DNA from: an uncultured virus (IMG/VR IMGVR_UViG_3300023174_000066)
Taxonomy: Duplodnaviria > Heunggongvirae > Uroviricota > Caudoviricetes
Reading direction: 5' to 3' (one strand)
Virus record (IMG/VR): IMGVR_UViG_3300023174_000066
Length of the DNA: 64,000 nucleotides
Shown here piece after piece: positions 1,305-36,022 of this stretch. Position numbers and translations under genes: made by a program. The number at the start of each line of letters is the position of its first letter. Position 1 is the stretch's first letter. Under the pieces are notes generated by a model, which did no database searches, was not told the DNA's origin, and was given only the letters and a program-made list of their open reading frames with translations.

Positions 1305-2075
1305 CTAATTAGATGTCAAGCTAAATTCTGGACGGCGTCGATACCACTCTTCAGGGAACTTTCGATCCATAATCCACTGAGGGTAGTTGGCTTGCTCAAG
1401 CTCAATCTCTGTATAGATATCTCCAGCAAGGTCATGTCCAAAAACCCAGCAGTGCTCAAGTGCTTCGTCCACATACTCTGTGACGAGCTCTTGGTGAGCA
1501 AATCCACGAACCTTACGAATAAGGTACTGAAGATCTCCCATAGAAGTTAAGTGCCATCCCCCAAATACCTGGGGCATTTGGTTTCTTTGCCAACGAACCT
1601 TATCCAAGTCTCTTCCTGCAACATCCCCATAACGAGCGACCACAGCAGTCAACTCGTTCTTGTGGTACCAGTGGAGGCTCATGTGGTACTTAGGCATAAT
1701 CAGCCCGACTGGTTCAGTGATGTCTTTGATCTTGTCAAAGTCCACCCACTCATCTGTGTCGCAGATTAGAACTAGGTCTTCAATCGAAGGATTAAGACTT
1801 GCCAGTACGCCACTCAGCTGAGCACGCTGGTAGTAGTCGTTGTCCCAAGCATTGGCAGACTTCTGTGACTGAACCTTGTGATAGACAATCTTGTCTTCGA
1901 AGTCTTTAAAGCGTTCTCGGTTTTCTTCAAAGTAGAAAGGCTTTGGTTGGTTGGCGTACATGTGGTCGCCCTCAACAATTACAAAATTATCGACAACGTC
2001 AACGTATGTATTAAGCCGACCCTCGAGCATGTCGAGTTCTCCACCAAATGTGATGCAGTCATAGACCTTAGTCAT
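1305..2075 (-). CDS. Glycosyltransferase family 17-like (GlcNAc transferase)
   Basis: VYDCITFGGELDMLE.R, VD.FVIVE, KPFYF, QR, DTDE, GGWHLTS...K...FAHQE. Confidence 0.85.
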   Translation of the reverse strand: MTKVYDCITFGGELDMLEGRLNTYVDVVDNFVIVEGDHMYANQPKPFYFEENRERFKDFEDKIVYHKVQSQKSANAWDNDYYQRAQLSGVLASLNPSIEDLVLICDTDEWVDFDKIKDITEPVGLIMPKYHMSLHWYHKNELTAVVARYGDVAGRDLDKVRWQRNQMPQVFGGWHLTSMGDLQYLIRKVRGFAHQELVTEYVDEALEHCWVFGHDLAGDIYTEIELEQANYPQWIMDRKFPEEWYRRRPEFSLTSN

Positions 2076-2403
2076 TTTTAGTCTCTTCTTCTTTCTTAGC
2101 TTTTATCTTCTGTTTATATTCTACAGCCAGATTGCCAACAGTTTGATTTTTATAGTGCACAGTTTTGACCATGTCTGGACGGAAGCTTCTCCAAGTCTCC
2201 CCACCCTTTGGCCCACCCCACACATCAATCCACTCAGCCCCAGCCGGCGTCACAACATGCTTGATAAATCTAAATCTTCCACGCACACCTTTAATCTTTA
2301 GCTCCGTTCCAGGGGAGACGTTCCTGCCATTGATTTGCATATGGGTAGTGACAACCCAATCGTCATCTAAACGGGGTGTGTTGATTTTTCTACGTCTTAC
2401 CAT
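2068..2403 (-). CDS. Hypothetical protein (leaderless)
   Basis: 111-aa ORF; TGCTATACT -10 box 6 nt before the ATG; overlaps the next gene. Confidence 0.75.
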   Translation of the reverse strand: MVRRRKINTPRLDDDWVVTTHMQINGRNVSPGTELKIKGVRGRFRFIKHVVTPAGAEWIDVWGGPKGGETWRSFRPDMVKTVHYKNQTVGNLAVEYKQKIKAKKEEETKND

Positions 2404-2419
2404 GCTAGGAGTATAGCAC

Positions 2420-2562
2420 GAAACCCCCTAGGCACTCTTTCGAGCTTGTTCCTAGGGGGTCCGGCACTGCGGGATTCCGTGCACAGAATCCTGCTATAAG
2501 CTCGTAGCCATTACAACTACGGCGACGCTATCGAGCGCCAGCATGGACGGGTAAGTGCCATG
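2420..2562 (-). ncRNA. Candidate structured ncRNA or attenuator
   Basis: TGtTACAAT promoter (2571-2579); GGCACU/AGUGCC closing stem (2559-2554 with 2468-2463), internal hairpins, and a 10-bp terminal stem ACCCCCTAGG/CCTAGGGGGT followed by TT. Confidence 0.55.
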
Positions 2563-2580
2563 TTAGATATATTGTAACAC

Positions 2581-2606
2581 AAAACCCCCGCCGAAGCGAG
2601 GGTTTT
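2581..2606 (-). terminator. Intrinsic terminator
   Basis: AAAACCCTCGC-TTCG-GCGGGGGTTTT. Confidence 0.8.
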
Positions 2607-2773
2607 GAGTTTGAAAGTCGTGCTCACCGTTTTCCGGCTATCCACTTCCCCGTACCTACTTGAAGCTTCACTCACAGTCTCAGCTGAACTCTGCACTGAT
2701 ATCGCTCTGCCCCGATAGGCACCTACATAAATATAAGTAATAACTCCCAAGTGTTCAGTCTTGTTTGTCACTA
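2607..2773 (-). ncRNA. Candidate ~170-nt ncRNA between a -10 box and a terminator
   Basis: TACTAT at 2780-2785; stems CUGAAC/GUUCAG and UACUUAUAU/AUGUAGGUG (G-U pairs favour the minus strand); ends at the UUCG terminator. Confidence 0.4.
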
Positions 2774-2796
2774 CTAGTAATAGTACACCATTCTAG

Positions 2797-3327
2797 TTAA
2801 AAATCCAAATCGTTGTAGCGATTTAGTATTTCTTTAGCCCAACTAACTAGATCCTCAACTCGTTGACCAGATGGTTGGCTTGATACCCATATCTCTAGAT
2901 TCTCCAGCCTATTATCATCTCTTATACCATTCTTATGGTGAACATTTTCTCCAGGGAGAAGTTGTCTTCCAAGGTACTGCTCCACCACAAAACGATGCTG
3001 TAGCTGACTCTCTCTTATTCTATTAATCGTTTTTGTTCTCATTAGATAGCCACTACCATTTATATACCAGTCTCCCCACTCCCCAGGATTATTATATTTT
3101 AATGGTCGTAGTTCTCCAAACTTTTTCATTTGGTAGTTGTGACCAGAACAAAGATTATTTCCCTTGTGTGGCTTGGGACAACCATCGAAGGTGCAAGTTT
3201 TAAGTCTCGCACCCTCTCTTGGTCGTAACGTACGAAGTTCTTCTCCCCGAAGACTCATTTTATAGTGAGATTGGCAAAGATTTTTTGCGTACGACTTCCT
3301 TGAGCACTTGTCAAATGAACAATTCAT
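2797..3327 (-). CDS. Free-standing HNH homing endonuclease
   Basis: GY...QHRFVVEQYLGRQLLPGENVHHKNGIRDDNRLENLEIW; two N-terminal C.F..C...LC..H repeats; leaderless promoter at 3334-3342. Confidence 0.92.
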   Translation of the reverse strand: MNCSFDKCSRKSYAKNLCQSHYKMSLRGEELRTLRPREGARLKTCTFDGCPKPHKGNNLCSGHNYQMKKFGELRPLKYNNPGEWGDWYINGSGYLMRTKTINRIRESQLQHRFVVEQYLGRQLLPGENVHHKNGIRDDNRLENLEIWVSSQPSGQRVEDLVSWAKEILNRYNDLDF

Positions 3328-3357
3328 CTAGACAGTATAGCATATTTATGTAATAGG

Positions 3358-5060
<1,703 letters not shown>

Positions 5061-5066
5061 AATCTG

Positions 5067-5075
5067 ATTATAGCA
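5067..5075 (-). promoter_or_regulatory. Extended -10 promoter (TGCTATAAT) overlapping the nrdE stop; drives the leaderless GIY-YIG gene
   Basis: TGcTATAAT + 6 nt + ATG. Confidence 0.7.
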
Positions 5076-7185
5076 TACAAGACACGCAGTTATCTGCTGT
5101 TGTTCCGTCAAGTGCCATCTGGCGGATACGAATGTAGTAGATAGTTTTGATGCCTTTTTTCCATGCGTAAATCTGAGCACGGTTGACATCGCGAGTAGTT
5201 GCTGTGTCTTTAAAGAACAGTGTCAAAGACAGCCCCTGATCTACGTGCTGAGTTGCAGCGGCATAGATATTGATAATCGCATCAGGACCAATTTCATAAG
5301 CGTCCTGGAAATACTCACGGTTGTCGTTTGTAAGGTAAGGAGCAGGGTAGTAAACACGGCCAAGCTTTCCTTCCTTGCGAATCTCAATCTGCGATGCGAT
5401 TGGGTGGATCGACGAGGTTGAGTTGTTGATGTACGAAATGGAACCAGTTGGTGGAACAGCCTGAAGGTTCTGGTTGTAAATTCCGTGCTCACGGACAGAG
5501 CGAGCTAGCTCTACCCAGTCTGCCTCAGTCGGAATTTTAATTCCAGCCTCTTTAAAAATTTCCGACACACGAAATGTTTTTGGCACCCATGTGTGTCCAA
5601 CATACTTATCAAAAAATTTTCCACTAGCGTAGTCAGATTTTTCAAAACCAGCAAACGTTTCTTTCTTTTCAATAGCCAGCTTGTTTGAAGCAGAAAGAGT
5701 GTGGAATAAGACCGTGTAAAAATACATGTTAGTAAAATCTACGGCTTCTTCAGAGTCGTAATGCACTCTTTCACGACCAAGATATCCGTGAAGGTTCATC
5801 TGACCAAGACCGATTGCGTGCGACCGCTTGTTGCCTTCCGCAATAGACATAACCGACTCGATGTAGCTAAGGTCGGATACAGAAGTCAGTGCGCGAACAG
5901 CCGCTTCAACAGTCTTAGCAATGTCTCCACCATCCATAACCTTTGCAATGTTAAGTGACCCAAGGTTGCAGGAGATATCGTTCCCGATCTCGTTGTAGCT
6001 AAGGTCTGCATTGTATGTAGTTGGTGTGTTGACCTGAAGAATCTCAGAGCAGAGGTTAGACATATTAATACGACCCTCAATTGGGTTGGCCGCATTGACC
6101 GTGTCTTCGTACATGACGTACGGATAACCTGACTCAAACTGAAGTTCAGCAATACGCTCAAACAAAATACGAGCTTTGATTTTATATTTACGAATTTCAG
6201 GGTTGTCTACCATCTCCTGATATTTTTCAGTAACAGAGATGTCTCCAAATGGAATTCCATAGATACGCTCTACGTCATAAGGAGAGAACAAGTACATGTC
6301 CTCGTTATTCTTAGCGAGCTCAAGTGTTACGTCAGGTACGACGACACCAATGCTAAGAGTCTTAATACGAATTTTCTCATCAGCATTTTCTTTTTTGGTG
6401 TCGAGGAACTTCATGATGTCGGGGTGGTGTGCATTGAGGTACACCGCACCTGCACCTTGGCGAGCGCCAAGTTGGTTTGCATAAGAGAAAGCATCTTCAA
6501 GAAGCTTCATCACGGGGATGACACCAGAAGACTGGTTCTCAATTTTTTTAATCGGGGCACCGTGCTCGCGGAGATTGCTGAGGCTCAAAGCCACTCCTCC
6601 ACCACGCTTTGACAATTGAAGTGCCGAGTTGATACCGCGAGAAATTGACTCCATGTTGTCTTCGATTCGAAGCAAGAAGCACGAGACAAACTCACCGCGT
6701 TGCTTTTTACCTGCGTTTAAGAATGTTGGAGTTGCAGGCTGGAATCTTCCCGTAATAATTTCATCAATTAGGTTAAGTACCTGAACTTTGTCCCCCTGAG
6801 CAAGAACAAGAGCGTTCATAACAACGCGGTCTTCAAATCTTTCTAGATATCTCTCACCGTCAAAAGTTTTTAGTGCGTACGATGTGTAGAACTTGTATGC
6901 ACCGAGGAACGCGTCAAATCTAAACTTGTATGCGTAGGCATGCTTAAATGCTTCTTTAACAAACTCTGGATCATACTGGTCAAGAACTTCTTGCTCGTAA
7001 TAATCGTTGTCTACCAAGTACCCGAGCTTTTCTTCAATAGAGTGGAAGAAGACCGTGTTCTGATTTACATGATCAAGAAAGTAAGCACGTGCTGCTTCTT
7101 TATCTTTATCGAATTGAATTTTGCCGTTCTCATCGTAAAGATTGAGCATTGCGTTTAGTTCATGGTAGCTATTTTTTTGCTCCAT
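5068..7185 (-). CDS. nrdE: Class Ib ribonucleotide reductase alpha subunit
   Basis: [37 protein letters not shown]-terminal CVSCML. Confidence 0.98.
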
Positions 7186-11049: not shown

Positions 11050-15416
<4,367 letters not shown>

Positions 15417-16769: not shown

Positions 16770-17678
16770 ATGAAGCTTTACATTGCTGGCCCTATGACGG
16801 GCATGGAGGATTGGAACTTCCCCGCATTCTTCGATGCTGAAAAGCAGTTAGAAAGTCTTGGATACGCGGTGGAAAACCCAGCACGGCACGATGGCAATAC
16901 TGTTGAAGAAGCCCTGGCTACTGTCGGTACCTCAGACAACCCCGTGGAAAAGTGGGAGTTCTACGTTAAAAGAGATCTTAAATATCTACTTGAATGTGTT
17001 GGAGTAGTTTTGCTCCCAGGCTGGCAGGATTCAAAAGGTGCACGTTTAGAAGTACACATTGCAAAACAGCTTAAGATGCCTTTGTTTATTATTAGAGACG
17101 GAAAACTTGCACCAAGAATTACTTGCATCGGTTTAGCGGGCTACGCTCAGTCTGGAAAAGACACAGTTGCAAAGACTCTTACAGAAGATTTTGGATACAA
17201 AAAAGTGGCTTTTGCAGATTCTATTCGTGAAGCACTACTTGCATTAAATCCTAGAATTGAAGTTGCCGGGATGCCCATGAAACTTGTTCAGGCAGTCAAG
17301 TCTTTCGGCTGGGACTTTTTAAAGAAAGAAGACACGGGAGTTAGAGAGCTCTTACAAAAATTTGGCACAGAGGTTGGTAGAGAATTAATTGATGAAAACA
17401 TCTGGGTAAACATGGCATTGGACTCTATTCCAGACGGAAGCCGTGTTGTCTTTTCAGACGTCAGATATCCTAACGAAGCAGACGCAATTAAGTCTGCAGG
17501 CGGGTCTGTCTGGAGAGTAAATCGTCCAGACAATTTTGGAGCAAACGAACATGAGTCCGAGCATGCGTTACAAGACTACAAATTCAACATCCAAATTAAT
17601 AACGTAGATACTGTTGATTTCCTTGAAGATATTGTTGTGACACTTATGAAAGAGAACAGACACCTATGGAAGATCTAG
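16770..17678 (+). CDS. Fusion of a DUF4406/deoxyribosyltransferase-like domain and a deoxynucleoside monophosphate kinase
   Basis: KLYIAGPMTG...NFPAF...LPGWQDSKGARLE; then GLAGYAQSGKDT, FAD.IR, RELLQKFGTE, SDVRYPNE, HESE. Confidence 0.88.
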   Translation: MKLYIAGPMTGMEDWNFPAFFDAEKQLESLGYAVENPARHDGNTVEEALATVGTSDNPVEKWEFYVKRDLKYLLECVGVVLLPGWQDSKGARLEVHIAKQLKMPLFIIRDGKLAPRITCIGLAGYAQSGKDTVAKTLTEDFGYKKVAFADSIREALLALNPRIEVAGMPMKLVQAVKSFGWDFLKKEDTGVRELLQKFGTEVGRELIDENIWVNMALDSIPDGSRVVFSDVRYPNEADAIKSAGGSVWRVNRPDNFGANEHESEHALQDYKFNIQINNVDTVDFLEDIVVTLMKENRHLWKI

Positions 17679-18307
17679 CTCTTCTCTACGCTCGTGTGTC
17701 AACGCAGCTTCAGGTAAATGATGGCGTCTCTCTTGATGTCCAAGAGCGCAATTTGCAGAGTGCTGCCGAACTCGCTGGGTATACAAATGTAGAGTTGGTT
17801 AGAGAAGAAGGACGATCTGGTAAGAACATCAGTGGACGTCCAGCATTGACTGACGCCCTAAAACGTCTAGATTCTGGAGAAGCCAAAGCACTTTTTGTAA
17901 CTCGTATTGATCGACTAGCTCGATCTACTCAAGACTTTTTGAGCGTCGTAGATCGAGCCAATAAAAATGGATGGCGTCTTGTAATGCTTGATCTAAACCT
18001 TGACACCTCGACATACCAAGGTCGATTCGTTGTGACAATCATGTCAGCACTTGCCGAGATGGAGAGAGGCATCATTGCTGCTCGTCAGAAAGACGTCCAC
18101 GAAGATCGACGCAAGCGTGGTGTTGTCTGGGGCGTAGACATGGGGCCAATGAATAAGACTCCTGAAGAAGTCAAACAAAGAGTTACTTCTGAGAGGGCTT
18201 TGGGGCTTTCTTACCAGAAGATTGCTGACGGGTTGAATCGAGATCAGGTTCCGACTCAGAATGGTCGGAAGTGGTATCCGACGACGGTAAAGAATCTACT
18301 GGGATAG
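17666..18307 (+). CDS. Serine recombinase (resolvase/invertase catalytic domain + short DNA-binding domain)
   Basis: YARVST..Q, E.GRSG....RP.L, DRLARS, AEMER..I..RQ, SYQKIA..LN...PT..G.KW..TTV. Confidence 0.92.
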   Translation: MEDLALLYARVSTQLQVNDGVSLDVQERNLQSAAELAGYTNVELVREEGRSGKNISGRPALTDALKRLDSGEAKALFVTRIDRLARSTQDFLSVVDRANKNGWRLVMLDLNLDTSTYQGRFVVTIMSALAEMERGIIAARQKDVHEDRRKRGVVWGVDMGPMNKTPEEVKQRVTSERALGLSYQKIADGLNRDQVPTQNGRKWYPTTVKNLLG

Positions 18308-32958: not shown

Positions 32959-35172
32959 CTAGAGCTTACCAGCCTTATCGTCTTTTAGCAACTCGAGAAG
33001 CTTATCCTTATCGCGAACAATCTGCTCGAAGTTGTCTGCTTTTGTTTCCAGAACTTGAAGAACTCGTTCTTCAATAGTTCCTTCTGTAACGTAATCCATG
33101 ATAATAACAGAATCATGAATCTCTGAACCAATTCGGTGAATACGGTCCAAAGCTTGTTTGTGATCAACTAGTGACCAAGGACGCTGAAGCATAATCAGAC
33201 GTCGTGCAGCTGTAAGTGTAACACCGACACCACCAGCTTGCACAGTAAAAAGAATCCATTTAATCTTTCCAGACTGGAAGTCGTCAATGGCACGAGTTCG
33301 CTCATCTTCAGTTTGGGCACCCGTGATAAGACCGTGGGCAATGCCTTCCTTAGTCATACGAGCACTCAGTAGCTCAATGAGCTGACGAGAAACTGCAGCA
33401 ACCGCGACCGAATCGTCCCCAAAGTCGCCTTCTTTAATGTCATCCATGACTGCATCGACCTTGCACGACGGCTCAGCGAGAATAATCTTCTGCTCGAGTG
33501 TCGTTTCGTCAGTCACCATTTCAGCAAAAGAGCTAGCAAACTGGTGAAGACGAGTTGTTTGGGTAAGGACGCTAGGCGCTACGACAGTCTCTCCTGCCCC
33601 TTCAAGCTCTGCAATCATGTGCTCACGCATGTCTTTATATGCTTTTGCCTGCTTTACAGACATCTCAACGTCACGACGTTCAAACATCATTTCAGGAAGC
33701 CAAGGAAGCACACGCTGCTTAAGCATGCGACGCATACGAGGATTGATTGCAGCATGGAACTCCTGCTCCATAGAAGGCTTAACACCAAGGACCATCATCC
33801 CACCAAAAGCGTTGAGCATAGTGTCAACCATACGGTCAATCCAACGAGTCTTGCTGGGCCACTCATCTGGGGACAACCAGTGGAGAATTGACCACATATC
33901 AAGAACGTTGTTTGCAACAGGAGTTCCGGTAAGAGCAAATCGAATCTCTGCATTGCCAGAAGCAGCCCAAAGCGCACGAGTCTGCTTAGACTTAGGTTCC
34001 TTAGAGCGGTGCATCTCATCAGCAATTACTGACTGGAAATCGATGACATTGAGCTCGCGCTGGTGGACTTCGCAACGAACTTCAGAGACACGATCATCGT
34101 GGCCACCGCAAGCGCTACAACGAGCAAGTGCAACAGAGCCATAAGGAGCAAGGCGCGAGTGTGAACGGAGAGACTCCCAGTTAATGACTACTACAGAGCT
34201 AGGACAAGTACAATTTTGCTCGGTCGAGCCAAGCAATGTCTCGCTCTGCTTGGTGAATAGCTGTGTTGCATCTCCTACAGAGGACTCCGCGAATTCTTCC
34301 TGTGTCGTGGCAGTGGTCAAGTACTTCTGCTGTATCAAAGCAGAGTCTGCATCTATGTTCAGCATTTGAGAAGAATTGTTCATACTGCTCAACTGTGATT
34401 CCATAGCTGGCTTCGATGTGCCGTTTTCTGGAAGAAATTGAGCGCTTAGATTTAGGCCATCTAAGACTATTTTCTCGTTGTCTTTGAGCGTATTCGGGGT
34501 TTCGCTGTCTAAGGTCTTTTTCGTAGCAGCTGCGGCACTTGTCTTTTGCATAGACTTTGAGTTTTGGGTGACATTGTGAATTTTGCATGTATTAGATTCT
34601 ATCACTTCTTGAAACTGCTTACGCCGCTGAGTTGCAGTTCCCTTGATAACCTGAACTTTTACTTCAGGCCACCACTTAGTGAACTCACGCTCCCAGTTTT
34701 TCTTAAGGGTGTTAGGGCAAACGATAAGAGCAGGAAACGGATCAGTGCCGTCTTCTTGAAGTTTTTTAAGTGCACGAATAGCCTGAGCAGTCTTACCAAG
34801 ACCAGGCTCGTCAGCAAGCAGCGCACGCTTAGCCGTAGCAAGAAACTTTACACCAGCACGCTGGTGAGGGAACAAGTCGTCGTCACCCTCTCCATCGGGG
34901 AGAACTTCAATGTCACGAAGCGCATTACTCGGGTCAACACGGGTATCACGCTCATGCGTAGCCCAAGCAGTCAAGTTAGAGCCAAGTGCAAGGTCATCTT
35001 TAAATGTAGAGCGGAGGGCAAGACAAGCTGACCAAGATACTGGCAATCTCCATTGCTGTACCTTGTTGTCGTAGCTTGCGCCAGGGATACTCTTACAGAG
35101 TTCCTTGTACCGCCAATCAGCGGTAATATAAATGTACTTACCGGACTCATCCAGTTCTACACCAACGGGCAT
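32959..35172 (-). CDS. SNF2-family helicase with a ~130-aa in-frame insertion
   Basis: LADEPGLGKT, CPNTLKKNW, DEMH, LTGTP..N, AGGVGVTLT, QALDRIHRIG; residues ~196-323 are not helicase-like. Confidence 0.93.
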   Translation of the reverse strand: MPVGVELDESGKYIYITADWRYKELCKSIPGASYDNKVQQWRLPVSWSACLALRSTFKDDLALGSNLTAWATHERDTRVDPSNALRDIEVLPDGEGDDDLFPHQRAGVKFLATAKRALLADEPGLGKTAQAIRALKKLQEDGTDPFPALIVCPNTLKKNWEREFTKWWPEVKVQVIKGTATQRRKQFQEVIESNTCKIHNVTQNSKSMQKTSAAAATKKTLDSETPNTLKDNEKIVLDGLNLSAQFLPENGTSKPAMESQLSSMNNSSQMLNIDADSALIQQKYLTTATTQEEFAESSVGDATQLFTKQSETLLGSTEQNCTCPSSVVVINWESLRSHSRLAPYGSVALARCSACGGHDDRVSEVRCEVHQRELNVIDFQSVIADEMHRSKEPKSKQTRALWAASGNAEIRFALTGTPVANNVLDMWSILHWLSPDEWPSKTRWIDRMVDTMLNAFGGMMVLGVKPSMEQEFHAAINPRMRRMLKQRVLPWLPEMMFERRDVEMSVKQAKAYKDMREHMIAELEGAGETVVAPSVLTQTTRLHQFASSFAEMVTDETTLEQKIILAEPSCKVDAVMDDIKEGDFGDDSVAVAAVSRQLIELLSARMTKEGIAHGLITGAQTEDERTRAIDDFQSGKIKWILFTVQAGGVGVTLTAARRLIMLQRPWSLVDHKQALDRIHRIGSEIHDSVIIMDYVTEGTIEERVLQVLETKADNFEQIVRDKDKLLELLKDDKAGKL
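34199..34588 (-). CDS. Endonuclease VII-family homing endonuclease nested out of frame within the helicase
   Basis: YGITVEQYE...CRLC....DHCHDTGRIRGVLCRRCN.AI.....WLDRAKLYL. Confidence 0.92.
   Translation of the reverse strand: MQNSQCHPKLKVYAKDKCRSCYEKDLRQRNPEYAQRQRENSLRWPKSKRSISSRKRHIEASYGITVEQYEQFFSNAEHRCRLCFDTAEVLDHCHDTGRIRGVLCRRCNTAIHQAERDIAWLDRAKLYLS
34596..34604 (-). promoter_or_regulatory. Internal extended -10 promoter for the nested endonuclease
   Basis: TGaTAGAAT + 7 nt + ATG(34588), matching the phage's other leaderless promoters. Confidence 0.7.
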
Positions 35173-35246
35173 TTAGTTTCCTTTTGTCTCTACGTATAAT
35201 ACTATCACATTCTAGGAAAATTTATTTCCAAAAGTGGATAGTATTT

Positions 35247-35702
35247 TTAATTTAATAATCTAGTTGGAACCCAACCAGTTTTGACCAACCTTAGCAGGCC
35301 ATGACGTATTGCGTCAAGTGCGTGTCCCGCACCGCCTCGATGCCAGTACTCTAGCTTCTTTAATTTTTCGTTGGTAAACATTGCCATTGCATCCGCTGGC
35401 TGTTGATACATAAGTAGTTCTGGGTCTCGACCCTCATCTAACATAAGAGTTTTGAGGGACCCAATAACCTCAAGGCTGTATGGGGCCTGGGCCTTCTTTG
35501 CTGTCTGAGCATTGATAGTAAACTTTTCGCAAATAACTTCAAGGCTGTCTCCATAAAGTTCAAACATCTTTCTGGCCTCAAAAACAAAGTCAGAAAACTC
35601 TACTTCACCACTCCATTCAAGGATTGGCTCAGATCCAGGGTCAAGTGAAAAAAGCGCAAGTCCGGTCATTTTCCCGGGATCGACTGCAAGTATGTGTCTC
35701 AT
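35247..35702 (-). CDS. RuvC-like Holliday junction resolvase
   Basis: ILAVDPGKMTG, ICEKF, HALDAIRH; ATGA overlap. Confidence 0.8.
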   Translation of the reverse strand: MRHILAVDPGKMTGLALFSLDPGSEPILEWSGEVEFSDFVFEARKMFELYGDSLEVICEKFTINAQTAKKAQAPYSLEVIGSLKTLMLDEGRDPELLMYQQPADAMAMFTNEKLKKLEYWHRGGAGHALDAIRHGLLRLVKTGWVPTRLLN

Positions 35703-36022
35703 GTCCAAATCACTTTTTTTACTCCTTTTCGTTTTAACTGTCCTTCGCATTTTTTACAAGGCTTTGAGTCAGCAGGCGTTCCGTCTTTACGAACACGAGC
35801 TACGTAGACCGTAGCCCCGTAAGCTTTACTTCCAGCCACAAACAATGCCGCAATTTCTGCATGCATGTGCGACTTTCTCCAACTGCCAGTTGTTTGATCG
35901 GATACCAGCTTATTTACTGCCTCACCGACAACACGCCCATTAAGGACAACAACGCAGCCGTGCCTATAACGACAACGACTCGTGTCAGCAAGTTTAATTG
36001 CTTTATTGAGGTGCTTACTCAC
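35699..36022 (-). CDS. Cytidine/dCMP deaminase-family protein
   Basis: HGCVVV, HAEIAAL, PCKKC. Confidence 0.88.
   Translation of the reverse strand: MSKHLNKAIKLADTSRCRYRHGCVVVLNGRVVGEAVNKLVSDQTTGSWRKSHMHAEIAALFVAGSKAYGATVYVARVRKDGTPADSKPCKKCEGQLKRKGVKKVIWT

Follow-up and report, generated by a model that had tools for sequence, protein, structure and literature searches.

An endonuclease VII-type nuclease gene nested out of frame in the SNF2 helicase gene of an uncultured tailed phage

The helicase locus and its nested nuclease gene

The DNA analyzed here is a stretch of 64,000 nucleotides (hereafter the window) of the uncultured virus IMGVR_UViG_3300023174_000066 (Caudoviricetes). Its minus strand carries an open reading frame (ORF) for a SNF2-family helicase, and wholly within this ORF, on the same strand and shifted by one frame, lies a second, complete ORF encoding an endonuclease VII (Endo VII)-type nuclease. 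Comparison with related loci suggests that the nuclease gene entered the helicase gene as an insertion and that the helicase is translated through it. The following features were distinguished at the locus:

32959–35172, minus strand: SNF2-family helicase ORF, 737 codons, reading through the insertion (ORF list, Pfam and alignment of relatives)
34606–35172, minus strand: helicase part 5' of the insertion, amino acids (aa) 1–189, with GLGKT at 34789–34803 (alignment to insertion-free relatives up to ...RRKQF(Q/A)E)
34189–34604, minus strand: inserted segment, 416 nucleotides (nt) against 14 nt in empty alleles, net +402 nt or 134 codons, a multiple of three (joint in the contigs of runs X6 and X7; DNA alignment with loci L003–L008)
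34589–34605, minus strand: 17-nt leader that separates the nuclease ATG from the 5' junction, with TGATAGAAT (34596–34604); V-I-E-S-N-T in the helicase frame (sequence)
34199–34588, minus strand: Endo VII-type (DHHRN-like) nuclease ORF, 129 codons plus TAG (Pfam, AlphaFold2, Foldseek and codon-position pattern)
34265–34351, minus strand: catalytic and zinc core of the nuclease, C80 to N108 (conserved columns of a 28-sequence alignment)
34189–34198, minus strand: 10-nt trailer 3' of the nuclease stop; with the stop, P-S-S-V-V in the helicase frame (sequence and contig junction)
32959–34188, minus strand: helicase part 3' of the insertion, from the strand VINWESL onward, with DEMH at 34009–34020 and Helicase_C (alignments, Pfam)

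The helicase ORF matches the Pfam families SNF2-rel_dom (PF00176; E=1e-38), with one stretch on either side of the insert, and Helicase_C (PF00271; E=1.7e-15). Outside the insert its product shares 74% identity with the helicase of Actinomycetia phage DSL-LC01. The insert follows ...RRKQFQE and precedes VVVINWESL, and thus lies between GLGKT/CPNTLKKNW (aa 124–160) and DEMH (aa 385–388), within flanking motifs that we take to be Ia and II. Helicase codons start 1 nt downstream of nuclease codons; the helicase therefore occupies the +1 frame of the nuclease, and the nuclease frame -1 relative to the helicase, i.e., "frame 3" of the host. Across the insert the helicase frame contains 0 stop codons and encodes a segment rich in S, T, Q and N (57 of 136 residues, against 108 of 601 in the rest of the protein). 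The same-strand nested ORF, the uninterrupted helicase frame and the Ser/Thr/Gln/Asn-rich segment between RRKQF and VVINWESL had all been pointed out in an initial annotation made from the sequence alone, and the ORF list, the Pfam matches and the residue counts agree with it. Ten other same-strand nested ORFs of at least 90 aa are present in the window; none of them has a Pfam match, a control by which the Endo VII ORF is more than a chance open frame.

The nuclease matches Endonuclease_7 (PF02945; E=6.4e-17, 61.7 bits against a cut-off of 23.6), its residues 56–128 aligning with positions 2–80 of the 82-position profile. The Pfam search gave no match to an HNH (PF01844-type) family, and the only other match, FYVE_2, stayed under its cut-off. 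In the 28-sequence alignment the columns C80, C83, D91, H92, R100, L103, C104, C107 and N108 are invariant and H94 is nearly so; these include the zinc-binding Cys pairs and the catalytic D-H..H...N of a beta-beta-alpha-Me site. All five DHHRN residues (D91, H92, H94, R100 and N108) are present, the family name being one that we infer for these columns from the report on F-CphI (PMC6083498). The AlphaFold2 model of the nuclease has a mean predicted local distance difference test score (pLDDT) of 96.4, and its top three Foldseek matches in the PDB are structures of T4 endonuclease VII (1e7l, 1en7 and 2qnf; E 3.3e-3 to 5e-3, prob 1.00), followed by Hpy99I; the TM-scores are only 0.34–0.36, and none of the matches reached E<=0.001. 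A sequence search of the PDB gave weak matches only (T4 endonuclease VII, E=0.22; Hpy99I, E=0.2). Among 5.8 billion collected proteins, eight distant ones were found, at most 36–44% identical (the best relative, 36%); the host helicase is present in this collection and the nuclease itself is absent, which says little, since gene finders make no calls for nested ORFs.

The AlphaFold2 model of the helicase has a mean pLDDT of 51.2 and a predicted TM-score (pTM) of 0.37 (20-row alignment), and was too poor for a fold search or for firm statements on loops. Its least confident part is formed by residues 195–323 (block means of 21–35, against 64–84 just before), which in the predicted model are flanked by a helix (180–194) and a strand (326–331).

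The insertion, its empty alleles and related insertions

A search of IMG/VR with the helicase returned 419 related stretches, of which the best 80 were kept; 77 of these span the insertion site and three do not. The site is empty in all 77 spanning loci, where the projected flanks lie 9 or 12 nt apart; in the window they are separated by 411 nt. Among them are three (L003–L005) whose helicases are 98–99% identical to that of the window at the protein level, and whose DNA differs from it at 143–255 positions over 4.8 kb. The occupied form was recovered, with 0 differences, in contigs of runs X3 and X4 (one X4 contig covers 34119–34639) and, at 0.90–0.99 of words, in at least four further runs of two studies; the 737-aa helicase protein is on record from three contigs. 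Contigs of X6 and X7, from two other studies, align to the window up to 34605 and join 34188 to 34605, 14 other letters replacing the 416. The search for insertion-free alleles and exact junctions that the initial annotation had proposed was thus successful, both in IMG/VR relatives and in these contigs, and revealed presence and absence at one precise site among close relatives, a distribution expected of homing genes.

All cultured relatives match the helicase in two separate segments and lack its middle; DSL-LC01 (74%) and Microbacterium phage Pumpernickel (62%) are the nearest. In the protein alignment they have a gap of ~134 residues, which follows ...RRKQF(x)E and precedes (x)V(x)NWESL. 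These matches were obtained with tblastn, a Megablast search of the helicase gene against phages having given no match. None of the relatives found, 419 stretches of IMG/VR and 1761 phage records, lacks the helicase itself. At the flanks, the empty alleles read KQF-AEEAD(I/V)YV-INWESL and the window reads KQF-QE-(insert)-SSVVV-INWESL, while the related occupied locus L085 (see below) reads ...TVVV before ANWESL where empty alleles have (I/V)YV. The target was both interrupted and altered, and the insertion is a true and recent one in the window lineage. Differences between occupied and empty alleles are not enriched beside the junctions, as a co-conversion tract would have them. A separate cluster of ~9–10 third-position differences between occupied and empty alleles is located at 34699–34762, 100–160 nt upstream of the junction; the 90 nt beside the junction are nearly identical.

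The inserted cassette is compact: the leader, the 390-nt ORF (ATG at 34588, TAG at 34199–34201) and the trailer follow one another with only ~27 of the 416 nt outside the ORF, the ATG at 34588 being position 18 of the insertion, counted from G34605, and the TAG lying 10 nt from the right junction.

A scan of IMG/VR for close relatives with the nuclease alone found nothing; an alignment of Endo VII proteins was needed as the query, and gave 80 loci, to which a metagenome scan added 2. The loci were tested by script for a stop-free second frame. The long nested cases found are all in frame +1:

L085: host SNF2 helicase; nuclease 74% identical to that of the window
L083/L084: host SNF2 helicase, 35–38% identical to that of the window, insertion at the same site; nested ORF 2998–3414, nuclease 43–47% identical
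L086: host RNA ligase (PF09414), ORF 170–1303; nested ORF 616–1065, nuclease 41–44% identical
L163: host 1018-codon ORF with DUF6582, 1406–4459; nested ORF 2722–3255, nuclease 30–36% identical
L135–137: host terminase large subunit (TerL), ORF 1997–4390; nested ORF 2863–3351 inside a true intein, nuclease 31–32% identical

All five distinct nested cases, i.e., SNF2 helicases (three lineages), the RNA ligase, the DUF6582 protein and the TerL intein, thus use the same frame. The L085 helicase is 66% identical overall to that of the window (65% and 72% in the flanks). At the same site the host frame is open in three helicase lineages (window, L085 and L083/L084), whose helicase motifs are intact; homologous insertions with host-frame stops, which would have spoken against the initial annotation, were not seen in these lineages. 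In a quick tree of the nucleases, with Shimodaira–Hasegawa-like approximate likelihood ratio test (SH-aLRT) support only, the three helicase-borne nucleases form a clade (SH-aLRT 96), and the label "nested" changes 3 times, against 5.8 in shuffles (0 of 500 shuffles as low), which suggests that nesting arose at least three times.

The individual cases differ in detail. The L083 nuclease has a guanine-plus-cytosine (GC) content of 0.51 within a helicase gene of 0.67, a contrast that suggests an immigrant; it carries W for the second His of D-H-x-H, followed by an 8-residue Cys-rich insert, and has lost the N-terminal Cys pairs. The TerL protein of L135–137 contains an Intein_splicing domain (aa 250–479; E=3.2e-15), with the Endo VII gene in frame -1 within the intein region. 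No intein domain was found in the hosts of L086 and L163. The PF09414 profile of L086 is stretched over residues 41–372, and the best phage matches of this ligase (41% identity) stop at residue 149, right at the beginning of the nested ORF, others reaching residue 236.

Two further loci (L056 and L061) combine an empty helicase site with a free-standing 205-aa Endo VII-type gene (338–955), located between the DNA polymerase gene and the RuvC-like gene, ~550 nt upstream of the helicase. Free-standing and nested Endo VII forms coexist in this phage group.

Host-frame stop codons, nuclease expression and the rest of the window

The gap-free alignment of the nuclease ORFs of the window and L085 shows 118 differences over 390 nt, of which 31, 16 and 71 fall at codon positions 1, 2 and 3, respectively. 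Of 129 amino acids, 96 are identical in the nuclease frame, 51 in the helicase frame and 50 in the third frame; the latter holds 12–13 stops in the two sequences and the helicase frame none. In the nuclease frame the proportion of nonsynonymous differences (pN) is 0.16 against a synonymous proportion (pS) of 0.84, i.e., synonymous sites are saturated. A comparison of selection in both frames, as suggested in the initial annotation, thus finds constraint on the nuclease and a helicase-frame peptide no better conserved than the third frame. The nuclease is thus under purifying selection, and the helicase-frame peptide drifts like a non-coding frame, save that stops never arise.

How unusual the open host frame is depends on the level of comparison. 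In neighboring genes of the window, stops occur at 4.2% of codons in the +1 frame and at 10.9% in the +2 frame, which gives P=3e-3 and P=2e-7, respectively, for 134 open codons. The six nested ORFs have 0 stops in their +1 frame against 9–13 in their +2 frame, while +1 stops occur in 63 of 64 distinct free-standing homologs, at a mean of 4.8 per 100 codons. Under common codon usage, 1.1–1.75 +1 stops per 100 codons are expected for the six nested proteins against a median of 2.46 for the free-standing ones, and in a ranking of 64 by this amino-acid-level propensity for +1 stops all six fall within the lowest 8. At the codon level, the +1 frame of the window nuclease stays open in 39% of synonymous resamplings (host codon usage), the corresponding values being 4% for L085, 10% for L083, 1.2% for L086, 1.4% for L135 and 14% for L163; with permutation of each gene's own codons the proportions are 0.40 (window), 0.15 (L085), 0.26 (L083), 0.06 (L086), 0.53 (L135) and 0.06 (L163). 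In the window copy there is little codon-level tuning, and the depletion sits at the amino acid level. The proposed stop-codon test thus finds a depletion at the amino acid level, relative to free-standing homologs, and no improbable openness of the window copy at the codon level (P=0.39), and the term "overprinting" used in the initial annotation overstates the tuning of this copy.

Synonymous resampling of the nested cases gives an average of 4.5–15 stops in the +2 frame, and this heavy load explains why the host frame is the nuclease +1 in every case. The +1 frame would be the only cheap host frame, as stops in it need only codon pairs of the type NTA followed by R or NTG followed by A, and the amino acid sequence of the window's nuclease lineage would offer few such stop-making pairs. 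The only "free-standing" homolog that lacks a +1 stop is L144 (2690–3370; GC 0.61), with a 227-codon open +1 frame that has no Pfam match; this gene may itself be nested.

As for expression of the nuclease, the motif TGATAGAAT (34596–34604) lies 7 nt before the nuclease ATG, within the helicase codons V-I-E, and had been proposed as a leaderless promoter. A promoter scan requiring a -35 hexamer did not call it. In L085 the leader has the same length and carries TGATAAACT at the corresponding place, TGnTAnnnT being kept; L083 has GGAGGA 10 nt upstream instead of TGnTAnnnT, and the other nested cases have GA-rich or TATGAT-like sequences. What stands of the promoter proposal is therefore a motif that is present in the window and kept in L085, the motif being absent from L083 and the promoter itself uncalled. 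The leaders of the window and L085 are identical at 13 of 17 positions; this is about as conserved as the ORF and so is not evidence of constraint. By eye, no X XXY YYZ slippery site for a -1 frameshift was found at the 5' junction. A promoter and terminator scan gave one promoter-like site in the nuclease ORF (34320–34293) and two terminator-like hairpins, counts at the level of shuffled sequences (1 vs. 1.5 and 2 vs. 1.3, respectively). A terminator-like hairpin (8 pairs) is located at 34216–34236 on the minus strand, at the 3' end of the nuclease ORF and in the middle of the helicase gene; by eye, its stem is not kept in L085.

The window as a whole is a tailed actinophage-like genome with WhiB, a family A DNA polymerase, a RuvC-like ORF, a PD-(D/E)XK nuclease and AAA_24, in addition to ribonucleotide reductase, tail genes and three further, free-standing homing-endonuclease-like genes. 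The latter (634–1254, 2797–3327 and 4311–5189, all on the minus strand) comprise two HNH_3 ORFs (E=8e-10 and 1.6e-9) and one NUMOD3-bearing ORF (E=1.1e-14), which is wedged between the genes for the small (3358–4374) and large (5068–7185) subunits of ribonucleotide reductase and overlaps both. A 1335-aa ORF (11409–15416, plus strand) with 14 collagen triple-helix repeat stretches (E=4.3e-80) likely encodes a fiber protein, and a serine recombinase gene (17666–18307) lies near it.

Probable read-through of the insertion, alternatives and known systems

Taken together, the window element is most likely a hidden out-of-frame homing-endonuclease insertion of the type described for mycobacteriophage ShiLan (see below), with the host gene read through. 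The cassette replaced 14 nt of the helicase gene, in a putative surface-loop region that separates the helix following motif Ia from the beta-strand beyond it. Since its net length is a multiple of three and the nuclease +1 frame is stop-free, ribosomes translating the helicase would read straight through, yielding a 737-aa helicase with a ~134-residue S/T/Q/N-rich, probably disordered loop, and neither RNA nor protein splicing would be needed. The nuclease would be made separately from its own ATG, from an internal or leaderless transcript or by internal initiation, and would cut insertion-free helicase alleles of co-infecting relatives, the repair of which would copy the cassette in; homing is suggested by the distribution of the element. 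Read-through is the reading best supported by all the comparative evidence, and the central proposal of the initial annotation, that the nuclease inserted without an intron or intein, is expressed separately and is carried by the helicase as a tolerated loop, gains support from these comparisons.

Several points weigh against this interpretation. Its support is comparative and at the level of sequence. The empty alleles are nearly identical to the occupied one, so that continued function of the occupied helicase is not demonstrable in the window lineage. Given the amino acid sequence of the nuclease, the open frame of the window is not improbable at the codon level (P=0.39; 0.40 permuted), a weak signal, and the comparison of stop propensity may be biased, as it sets whole nested ORFs against matched parts of free-standing ones. 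The expression signals of the nuclease are uncertain: the -10-like motif is uncalled by the scan and not kept in L083, and by eye there is no well-placed Shine-Dalgarno sequence, only a partial AAGUGAU 12 nt from the AUG. The L083 nuclease may be decaying, in which case its open host frame shows constraint on the host and not nuclease activity. Finally, with a poor helicase model, the term "surface loop" rests mainly on alignment gaps in relatives.

Alternatively, the insertion might have damaged or idled the helicase, the frame being open by luck and the loop not functionally tolerated. One third of insertions are a multiple of three by chance, 39% of synonymous resamplings leave the frame open, and a recent insertion has had little time for decay; this explanation is nevertheless unlikely, as the same-site arrangement occurs in helicases only 66% and 35% identical with their motifs intact, the host frame is stop-free in spite of saturated synonymous sites in the nuclease (pS 0.84), the occupied form is found in at least four further runs of two studies and the helicase is kept in all relatives found.

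Introns and inteins are the usual vehicles of homing endonuclease genes that occupy conserved genes. It is therefore conceivable that the insert is removed, by a self-splicing intron overlapping the ORF or by unrecognized protein splicing, and that the mature helicase lacks the loop. Related Endo VII-like genes do lie out of frame in true inteins, as in L135–137 and in the cases reported in a recent preprint (bioRxiv 10.1101/2025.01.02.630785), and the helicase-frame insert of the window begins close to a Cys and ends close to an Asn-Cys pair. Searches for splicing signals point the other way. Rfam gave no group I or group II intron at E<=10 on either strand of 33500–35300 (the only row was a snoRNA at E=4.6), and the nuclease ORF leaves only ~27 of 416 nt of the insert for such an element. 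The helicase-frame inserts of the window, L085 and L083 matched no HINT or intein family at E<=10, against 3.6e-16 for the control L135 in the same search. Both results agree with the initial annotation, in which neither an intron core nor a HINT domain had been seen. Just before C-T-C, where an intein would have its terminal Asn, the helicase frame reads N in the window but S in L085 and R in L083. An intron would require neither a length divisible by three nor a host frame that is open in three lineages, and the helicase-frame peptide, no better kept (51/129) than the third, stop-filled frame (50/129), cannot encode a conserved splicing fold. We consider removal of the insert very unlikely.

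The idea that the nested ORF is a domesticated Endo VII-type junction resolvase or packaging nuclease in a fixed gene overlap draws on the name of PF02945 (after the T4 resolvase), on the structural matches to T4 endonuclease VII and on purifying selection on the ORF, and is highly improbable given that (i) the nuclease is absent from all 77 spanning helicase loci, including those 98–99% identical, (ii) a RuvC-like ORF (35247–35750), whose counterpart is annotated as "RuvC-like resolvase" in DSL-LC01 and Pumpernickel, adjoins the helicase, (iii) the GC contrast of L083 (0.51 in 0.67) suggests an immigrant, and (iv) proteins with the Endo VII motif include proven homing endonucleases (F-CphI; PMC6083498), all DHHRN residues being present here.

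Among known systems, T4 endonuclease VII (1e7l/1en7) is the best structural match of the nuclease (E=3e-3, prob 1.00, with a TM-score of only 0.36) and belongs to the same Pfam family, but it has nothing that corresponds to the N-terminal helices and Cys pairs of the window protein. The T4 protein (gp49) is a 157-aa Holliday-junction resolvase encoded by a normal stand-alone gene. The HNH gene mobE is said to be embedded in nrdA of Aeromonas phage Aeh1 (a case attributed to Gibb and Edgell, 2007), the host gene reportedly being in pieces with its function retained. This too is a homing endonuclease gene within an important phage gene without an intron or intein; there the host is reportedly split into two reassembling polypeptides, whereas the host frame of the window is continuous.

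The closest precedent is formed by the ShiLan domain and the Pacc40 gp60 insertion, hidden out-of-frame HNH genes in DNA methylase genes of mycobacteriophages (Arsenault, Gosselin, Gogarten, Genes 2025, PMC11855218). In ShiLan the host frame is stop-free, the nuclease starts with GTG at position 18 and ends with TAA in the last four bases, lies in frame 3, has no intron or intein and is predicted to correspond to a loop. The window element resembles it in (i) an insertion of a multiple of three in a conserved gene, with an open host frame and the nuclease in frame 3, (ii) a start codon at insertion position 18 and a stop near the 3' edge, (iii) no intron or intein signal and an in-frame peptide without a recognizable fold, and (iv) a sporadic distribution among close relatives; leaderless initiation has been proposed for ShiLan too. 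It differs in nuclease type (Endonuclease_7/DHHRN, 129 aa, against HNH with zinc fingers, 195 aa), start codon (ATG against GTG), host gene (a SNF2 helicase of the replication module against a methylase considered dispensable by its authors) and source (an uncultured freshwater actinophage against cultured mycobacteriophages). In that paper "endonuclease VII" and "SNF2" each have 0 occurrences.

The same group has reported endonuclease VII-like genes in frame 3 inside inteins (bioRxiv 10.1101/2025.01.02.630785) and an out-of-frame nuclease in a cyanobacterial dnaX intein (bioRxiv 10.64898/2026.09.14.751524). The former share with the window the nuclease family, same-strand nesting in "frame 3" and an open host frame, and their architecture is reproduced by the TerL loci L135–137. 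In those cases the flanking splicing domain presumably removes the peptide, whereas the window, L085, L083, L086 and L163 have no HINT domain and the read-through peptide should thus stay in the host protein. F-CphI, a homing endonuclease of the DHHRN family that has the catalytic motif of Endo VII (Fang et al., Mob DNA 2018, PMC6083498), resembles the window nuclease by its motif residues and by the lifestyle of a mobile phage nuclease; its gene is free-standing and not nested in a coding sequence.

The novelty implied by the initial annotation is thus not borne out, the same lifestyle having been published in 2025 (PMC11855218; bioRxiv 10.1101/2025.01.02.630785). What is known already is the splicing-free hidden-nuclease lifestyle; what differs here is the nuclease family and the host gene, possibly a more important one. 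Full-text literature searches gave no report of an SNF2 helicase gene with an intein-free nested gene of the Endo VII type, a statement to be read with the proviso that supplements of the preprints might list such cases. New in the present analysis are the frame rule, the depletion of stops at the amino acid level and the finding that the arrangement recurs in different host genes. Somewhat speculatively, homing endonuclease genes that do not use introns or inteins could have a third strategy of general use in read-through nesting, following a coding rule (host frame equal to nuclease +1), with stop-poor Endo VII lineages as pre-adapted portable cassettes. Such a cassette, consisting of a short leader, the ORF and a short trailer with a total length divisible by three, could settle, in one of the three insertion phases, wherever a gene has a loop that tolerates it.

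On this evidence, the hidden-nuclease lifestyle would not be confined to HNH genes in a dispensable mycobacteriophage methylase but would include Endo VII-type nucleases, and would extend to a conserved replication helicase of uncultured freshwater actinophages, persisting in helicases as little as 35% identical. As gene callers skip same-strand nested ORFs, such elements would be systematically missed and their "loops" annotated as host protein. The frame-3 rule together with amino-acid-level stop depletion offers a simple, testable explanation of the geometry of the published cases, and the tolerated insertion sites would mark permissive loops in helicases, ligases and terminases.

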